From Escherichia coli (GTDB taxonomy: Bacteria; Pseudomonadota; Gammaproteobacteria; Enterobacterales; Enterobacteriaceae), in NCBI RefSeq assembly GCF_024700885.2, contig NZ_CP117016.1: a stretch of 64,000 nucleotides of DNA. The stretch is one strand, 5' to 3'. The notes under the pieces were generated by a model. The model was not told the origin of the DNA and searched no databases. It saw only the letters and a program-made list of their open reading frames with translations. Positions 17,034 to 17,474 of this stretch are shown piece after piece. A program made the position numbers and the translations under genes. Each line of letters opens with the position of its first letter. Position 1 is the first letter of the stretch.

Positions 17034-17474
17034 GATACCCTTCTAACAATATCTACCTTCGCCCCGTAAAAGATGGGTTTGGCAGCACACTTGCCCTATA
17101 TCTACTCATTTTTACTGCAACAGGTTGAAATCTCAGCACTGTCAGAAAGCGCTGATGACTAAACAGCCCTGGGCCGGGCGATGTAACCATCACACAGAAT
17201 CCTGATAGCGAAATATGGCGTGACTCGATACTTCACTCTGCAATGCATTCCTTGATGAATTCGCAGGCCCGTGATACACGGGACAGGTCGCTGAATGACG
17301 ACAATGTCCTGGAAATCAGCGAACCGCGTATCCGGAGTACATTTGAGCGACTGTACCAGAACATGAATGAGGCGTTTGGATTAGGTGATTATTAGTTGGG
17401 CTAAGCATTTTAGTATTATTATTTTCCGGTTGAGGGATATGGAGATATCGACAACAACCGGAAAAAGTTTACGT

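Follow-up and report, generated by a model that had tools for sequence, protein, structure and literature searches.

The DNA analysed here, called the window, is a 64-kb segment of an Escherichia coli chromosome with the gene order fadJ-fadI-fadL-yfdF-mlaA-yfdC-argW-cscB-cscK-cscA-cscR-dsdX'-dsdA-emrYK-evgAS. It carries the csc-type allele of the argW-dsdCXA / cscRAKB variable locus, in which the csc cluster (cscB, cscK, cscA, cscR; cscB being the first gene) substitutes for dsdC and the 5′ part of dsdX. Homology to dsdX of K-12 picks up again at 22604. The csc/dsd replacement beside argW is textbook knowledge (PMC11251922, PMC13054288, PMC3032704), and the variable locus is credited to Jahreis et al. 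2002 and Moritz & Welch 2006 (as cited in PMC11251922 and PMC13054288). In these three papers, no passage on the gap between argW and cscB, or on an island-gene relic in it, was found. The gap between the 3′ end of the tRNA-Arg gene and the cscB stop measures 441 bp, in agreement with the figure of about 440 bp given by an earlier, sequence-only reading of this DNA. The features of the region are as follows.

16959-17033, plus strand: argW, tRNA-Arg(CCU) (ARAGORN; Rfam tRNA, 63.4 bits); intact, single copy in the window
17034-17474: argW-cscB gap, 441 bp
17034-17074, no strand: stretch directly after the tRNA, 41 bp; single copy; in csc-type genomes only
17075-17102, plus strand: scrap of a DUF957 gene, codons ~37-45 of 65, joined to DUF4942 codon 38 at an ATCGA microhomology
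17100-17187, plus strand: DUF4942 pseudogene, segment A, codons ~38-66; frame 1 relative to 17034, broken by TAA
17177-17187, plus strand: deletion junction, one fused copy of the imperfect direct repeat GGC(G/A)ATGAAA
17159-17395, plus strand: open frame of the sequence-only reading, 78 codons and TAG; DUF4942 homology at ~17177-17386 (codons ~84-151)
17387-17404, no strand: relic/csc junction, 18 bp, containing the non-native stop TAG 17393-17395
17405-17474, minus strand: 3′ flank of cscB, part of the csc module, containing the conserved hairpin 17422-17465
17475-18722, minus strand: cscB, sucrose permease (open reading frame list; RefSeq annotation of the identical locus in strain 1190)

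Reading frame and expression signals in the argW-cscB gap

An open frame of about 79 codons had been placed at 17159-17397. The frame itself was correctly recognised. It is open from 17159 to 17392 (frame 3), is preceded by TGA TGA at 17153-17158 and is closed by TAG at 17393-17395; its true size is 78 codons and the end coordinate had been 2 off. In-frame ATG, GTG or TTG codons occur only at 17243, 17252, 17255 and 17363. No Shine-Dalgarno-like purine run is present in the 20 nt before any of these four, and no sigma-70-like promoter was found in 16850-17600. The frame is thus promoterless and without a plausible start or ribosome-binding site, as had been proposed.

The gap was also searched for RNA features. 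The tRNA was the sole meaningful match in an Rfam scan, folding of 17030-17170 revealed nothing unusual (z -1.18), and the terminator search of the gap was likewise empty apart from the hairpin in the csc flank. Between 17034 and 17404, neither an Rfam match nor an unusually stable conserved structure indicative of a structured RNA or regulatory element was found.

When the 441 bp were shuffled, 606 of 2000 shuffles (30%) yielded an open stretch of at least 78 codons, so the length of the frame is within chance. By length, a chance open frame in junk intergenic DNA would be an adequate description. The probability of this explanation is negligible, however, and it is refuted by matches to the DUF4942 family that are highly significant in both protein and DNA comparisons. 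The translated open frame matches Pfam DUF4942 (PF13708) with 38.4 bits and E 1.4e-9, above the gathering cut-off of 25, and is a member of the family. Because of this homology, and not because of its length, the open frame is regarded as a real gene remnant. The BLASTX/TBLASTN comparison that had been suggested as a check gave significant DUF4942 protein matches, and the gene-remnant part of the sequence-only reading is supported by both the Pfam score and the tblastn result given below.

Composition of the two-gene relic

Full-length DUF4942 proteins have 280-281 aa, with the Pfam domain at residues 87-276 (profile positions 1-190). The relic spans only profile positions 5-62 of 190, or ~30% of the domain. 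In a tblastn comparison of a full-length protein (EDL933 record, L005:4776-5618) with the gap, residues 76-151 aligned with 17159-17386 (40/76 identical, 53%, E 8e-21), the homology within the open frame being genuine from about residue 84. A second collinear segment, residues 38-65, aligned with 17100-17183 in another frame (E 0.002). At the DNA level, blastn to full-length genes also gave two pieces, 17100-17187 (gene of L007; 65/88 identical, E 1e-11) and 17177-17378 (155/203 identical, E 3e-39), with 74-76% identity across 17100-17378. The same two-piece match, which together spans gap positions 67-345, was recovered from E. coli genomes that do not carry csc.

The two blastn blocks overlap by 11 nt in the window (gap positions 144-154) and are 54 nt apart in intact genes, where the imperfect direct repeat GGC(G/A)ATGAAA flanks the stretch that is missing from the relic. 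The loss of the 54 nt between the repeats and of 1 further nt makes a net deficit of 55 nt, and this is the cause of the frame change inside the relic. About 37 N-terminal and ~130 C-terminal codons are missing; ~95 of 280 codons remain, in two frames. Neither 17379-17410 nor the junction 17387-17404 showed significant similarity to the rest of the DUF4942 gene (p 0.6-0.97). The junction is absent from Citrobacter and deleted in L009, a divergent Escherichia locus. Since the stop at 17393 is located in this non-homologous DNA, it is not native. The complete DUF4942 domain is thus lacking, and in place of an uninterrupted ORF of ~280 codons the gap holds a sequence with a frameshift, internal deletions and no start of its own.

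In the sequence-only reading, the frame was taken for the 3′ end of a gene that had lost its 5′ part when an island arrived. The absence of a start or ribosome-binding site and the stop at its end are compatible with such a fragment, but the alignment coordinates refute it and leave it with very little probability. The frame corresponds to residues ~84-151 of 280, in the middle of the protein, and the domain runs on to residue 276. In addition, 5′ sequence of the gene persists in the other frame and the stop belongs to the junction DNA.

Immediately upstream, the stretch 17075-17102 showed an 18/21 match to the DUF957 gene at L005:4608-4628, a score attained by none of 300 shuffles. The orthologous piece in L009 matches DUF957 at 25/27 positions. 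The ATCGA microhomology at the fusion point occurs in both the DUF957 and the DUF4942 genes. As the DUF957-DUF4942 fusion is common to L009 and the window, it is older than the split of these lineages. The left 66 bp of the gap gave no signal when compared with the 5′ end of DUF4942 and its upstream region (p 0.7-1.0).

In intact islands the genes are ordered antirestriction, RadC-like, DUF987, antitoxin, toxin, DUF5983, DUF957, DUF4942 and island end. Pieces of the last two are present in the gap in the distal gene order of CP4-57-like islands (17075-17102, then 17100-17386). The DUF957 piece, together with the upstream DUF4942 piece in the second frame, thus identifies a collinear two-gene relic with several deletions: from beyond DUF957 codon ~45 through DUF4942 codon 37, 55 nt within DUF4942, and everything past codon ~151. 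The order of its pieces is that of the distal end of CP4-57-like islands, and the relic has the same direction as argW. The upstream continuation in the second frame and the DUF957 piece had both been overlooked in the sequence-only reading.

The DUF4942 proteins that end CP4-57/CP4-44-like islands (WP_001280481.1 of EDL933; WP_001280435.1 of EA13) resemble the relic over codons 38-66 and 84-151, with 53% amino acid and ~75% DNA identity. The intact genes have the same upstream neighbour, DUF957, and the same orientation relative to the tRNA-proximal integrase end. Unlike them, the relic has neither a start nor a native stop, and 70% of the domain is gone. In an exhaustive HMMER search of 1.84 billion representatives the closest full-length relatives were only 54-55% identical, and a word-indexed protein search for closer full-length relatives returned the same short orthologous fragments only. 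A PDB sequence search with full-length DUF4942 gave no match.

Taken together, we consider it probable, at about 80%, that the gap holds a non-functional remnant of the gene pair (DUF957 and DUF4942) with which a CP4-57-like, P4-integrase-type island closes.

Decay of the relic, its distribution and the border of the csc module

RefSeq annotation by PGAP labels the frame in the gap as 'DUF4942 domain-containing protein' in many genomes and has nothing there in many others. The annotated CDS differ in length from genome to genome, being 50, 60 or 68 aa in the regions fetched (for example L001:9180-9362, L004:8154-8360 and L019:1609-1761). Transferred to the window, the 60-aa version would start at an ATA codon. 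A live small gene, in which these entries of 50-73 aa would represent a truncated functional peptide, could be argued for from the PGAP CDS in many genomes and from the frame being open in 5/6 of the sequences compared (the window and five orthologues, picked across the identity range). The sixth, L018, has an in-frame TGA; it belongs to a 96.1%-identity group whose sampled matches are mostly without an annotated RefSeq gene at this position. Further evidence against such a gene came from the substitution pattern in the same six sequences. The pN/pS of the open frame was 0.64, compared with 0.07 for cscB, both at a pS of ~0.06. Deletions have removed 173 of 284 positions of the relic in L009, and with them most of the frame; what is left is 58-77% identical, against ~90% for the neighbouring csc region. 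Thus, neither purifying selection nor a conserved reading frame was observed. With the inconsistent starts, the many genomes without a call, the lack of a promoter-like site and only 30% of the domain left, a functional peptide is highly improbable. The relic evolves almost neutrally, and the PGAP entries in the gap look like homology-driven over-annotation of a pseudogene. In the left part of the gap 14/66 sites were polymorphic among 6 orthologues, 17034-17074 being the most polymorphic part of the gap.

Of 5426 complete E. coli genomes, 2644 have the gap sequence, and 2623 of these have it in full. cscB was found in 2648 of the same 5426, and relic and cscB occur together in >99% of carriers. 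The dsdC allele (about 95 bp and dsdC) was present in 2712 of the 5426, and the csc cluster and dsdC exclude each other almost completely (2644 against 2712). Neither end of the gap occurs outside the argW-cscB locus; each is single copy, with no paralogous copy in the 5426 genomes. A metagenome set of 58 contigs was retrieved with the cscB-flank hairpin as pattern. Fifty of these have DUF4942 homology, and all show the same truncated relic, never past residues 75-151; in the other eight the relic is deleted, or they are Citrobacter-like and without it. At the argW locus, the relic is a fixed feature of the csc-type allele.

The left border of the csc module was located by comparison with other csc loci. 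A CscB scan with one genome per species detected csc in Citrobacter amalonaticus (two genomes; L010 and L014), where DNA homology to the window extends from 22401 to 17407 at 80-82% identity. Because this homology, hairpin included, reaches only 17407, the csc module begins at ~17405. The transferable module is thus ~5.0 kb long with sharp ends (17405-22401), and the relic, which extends to 17386, lies just outside it, with the 18-bp junction between. In C. amalonaticus the module is situated between yjfF (of the ytfRT-yjfF galactofuranose transporter) and a truncated chemoreceptor, fbp and mpl, and no tRNA, DUF4942 or mobile-element genes are found near it. The relic does not travel with csc everywhere: C. 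amalonaticus and contigs L050, L076 and L077 share the module from 17407 and have no DUF4942, which is also absent from the Rosenbergiella csc loci. The relic sits at a junction made by gene-cluster replacement, as had been suggested. That the gene was 'destroyed during island acquisition' is not proven, as the csc module common to Citrobacter starts at ~17405 and excludes the relic.

Within the module flank, just 3′ of cscB, the hairpin at 17422-17465 has the arms TTTTCCGGTTG and CAACCGGAAAA and folds as minus-strand RNA with -17.2 kcal/mol (z -3.7). The loop is variable, but E. coli, L009 and C. amalonaticus have identical arms. The absence of a U-run after it distinguishes the hairpin from a canonical intrinsic terminator, and it may stabilise the 3′ end of the cscB mRNA.

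At the other side, the ~200 bp at 22402-22603, from the end of the csc module upstream of cscR to the dsdX homology at 22604, have no match to K-12 or CP4-like island DNA, and no island pieces were found to the right of csc (22300-22900). Comparison of L009 (4100-4200) with window positions 22604-22720 showed that ~110 further bases of the dsdX remnant are gone in L009. Erosion is thus independently under way at the right junction of the csc-type allele as well.

argW as an integration site and the origin of the relic

The 3′ 15-16 nt of argW are the att core of KplE1/CPS-53-type and P22-like prophages, and the K-12 attR (pawZ) is identical to the last 15 nt. A search of the 64-kb window for the final 16 nt of argW, tolerating up to 3 mismatches, found a single site, and a repeat search of 16900-24300 showed nothing relevant. 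The earlier remark that no direct repeat of the argW 3′ end lies nearby therefore holds for the whole window, and no element bracketed by copies of the tRNA 3′ end is present. There is also no integrase ORF between argW and cscB, where a CP4-57-like island would have a tyrosine integrase next to the tRNA, and the window has no integrase remnant. In other strains, integrase fragments are at the position of CPS-53 intS or have a phage-integrase arm-binding domain, in prophage/IS contexts.

Past the yfdC side, the window matches K-12 up to the last base of argW, where the homology stops. In K-12, argW is followed by the CPS-53 prophage, attR (pawZ), 95 unrelated bp and dsdC. An unoccupied dsd-type site has argW, 99 bp and dsdC, and B2 strains have upaE-ipuAB between argW and dsdC. 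An intact CP4-like island was not found at argW in the genomes examined; its occupants are KplE1/P22-like prophages or their remains, upaE-ipuAB, or nothing. The stretch 17034-17074 gave no convincing match to island DNA, the K-12 prophage arm or the dsd-type flank. A 12-nt motif, TTTATCCCT.AA, resembles the dsd-type flank in the L009 orthologue only, with marginal significance (p about 0.015). An ancestral dsd-type flank at 17034-17074 was rejected, this marginal motif being its only support. The left junction could be either an integrase-made attL or an illegitimate join ~40 bp downstream.

Several other arrangements were noted at this site. In ETEC L7_E1373 (L003, 3794-6077) an N-terminal integrase fragment and ISEc46 substitute for gap positions 1-364, and the last 77 bp by cscB are kept. 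The integrase fragment begins at the same distance from argW as K-12 intS; ISEc46 is here an IS200/IS605 tnpA with a TnpB-family gene. Metagenome contigs L071 and L031 have a P22-like prophage remnant after argW, containing an integrase, an unknown ORF, an O-antigen acyltransferase-family gene and a tailspike with head-binding domain, and a deletion at the end of this remnant reaches the relic at 17329. In seventy-odd records of Stx2a-converting phages an 86-bp match to 16900-16985 (argW promoter region and 5′ part) is annotated as 'duplication due to insertion', which places the integration site of these phages on the 5′ side of argW, with an att differing from the 3′-end core of the KplE1/P22-like prophages. 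Four 'Escherichia phage' records (ON470608, ON470622, ON470589 and ON470594) have, at 98% identity, cscB and cscK together with the relic and all or the 3′ end of the tRNA-Arg gene. Either the deposits take in some host flank beside the prophage, or these phages acquired csc through aberrant excision from argW.

Two elements of K-12 serve for comparison. In CP4-57, integrated at ssrA, intA lies beside the tRNA-like gene and is co-directional with it, the toxin-antitoxin end is distal, and the attR pseudo-tRNA psaA follows. Like CP4-57 and CPS-53/KplE1 (argW, attR pawZ), the relic is degraded mobile-element DNA by a tRNA hotspot. Both K-12 elements keep an integrase and att direct repeats; the argW relic has neither, and retains only two distal gene pieces.

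The relic may be the last trace of a CP4-57-like island at argW in the ancestor of the csc-type allele, which would have served as landing pad or vehicle for the csc regulon. This view is tentative, its chances falling somewhat short of one half. Such an island would once have occupied argW, at about even odds, its integrase lying beside the tRNA and its final gene, DUF4942, being followed by attR and dsdC. When the 5-kb csc module came in, it would have removed the 3′ half of DUF4942, attR, dsdC and the 5′ part of dsdX, and the rest of the island would have been erased by short-repeat deletions. No att repeat would survive because csc arrival took attR and the short-repeat deletions the rest. 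Against an island at argW count the lack of an intact one there in any genome examined, the absence of an integrase remnant and an att repeat from the window, and the failure of 17034-17074 to match island DNA. At present the segment has no role beyond that of a chromosomal flank, on the attR side, for prophages integrating at argW.

The main alternative history, in which the relic came with csc, appears rather unlikely. In a donor genome csc would have been adjacent to a CP4-like island end, and a single composite (DUF957'-DUF4942'-cscBKAR) from it would have replaced the flank, dsdC and dsdX' downstream of argW; there would never have been an island at argW. The co-occurrence of relic and cscB in >99% of carriers favours this, as do the absence of an att repeat and of an intact island at argW in any of the genomes inspected; the resemblance of the first bases after argW to the dsd-type flank is a weak hint in the same direction. 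It is opposed by the independent csc contexts (C. amalonaticus and the three Citrobacter-like contigs), which share the module from 17407 and have no DUF4942, Rosenbergiella being likewise without it. The orientation of the relic to argW is also that expected of an argW-integrated island.

The csc/dsd replacement and the DUF4942 label of the fragment in RefSeq are already known. The new points are small: the fragment is internal and not 3′ terminal, it is part of a collinear two-gene relic, it lies outside the csc module, and its annotation as a pseudogene is due. The RefSeq 'DUF4942 domain-containing protein' between argW and cscB is a dead internal fragment for which a pseudogene flag is warranted, and the left edge of the csc module is at ~17405 rather than at argW. 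The scar is an ordinary pseudogene scar, carried by about half of E. coli, and adds no mechanism or function. It indicates that CP4-like island DNA took part in the history of the csc/dsd replacement. If an island at argW was indeed involved, the csc/dsd polymorphism that halves E. coli would be the outcome of an island-mediated event at a tRNA site, followed by near-complete erosion of the island.
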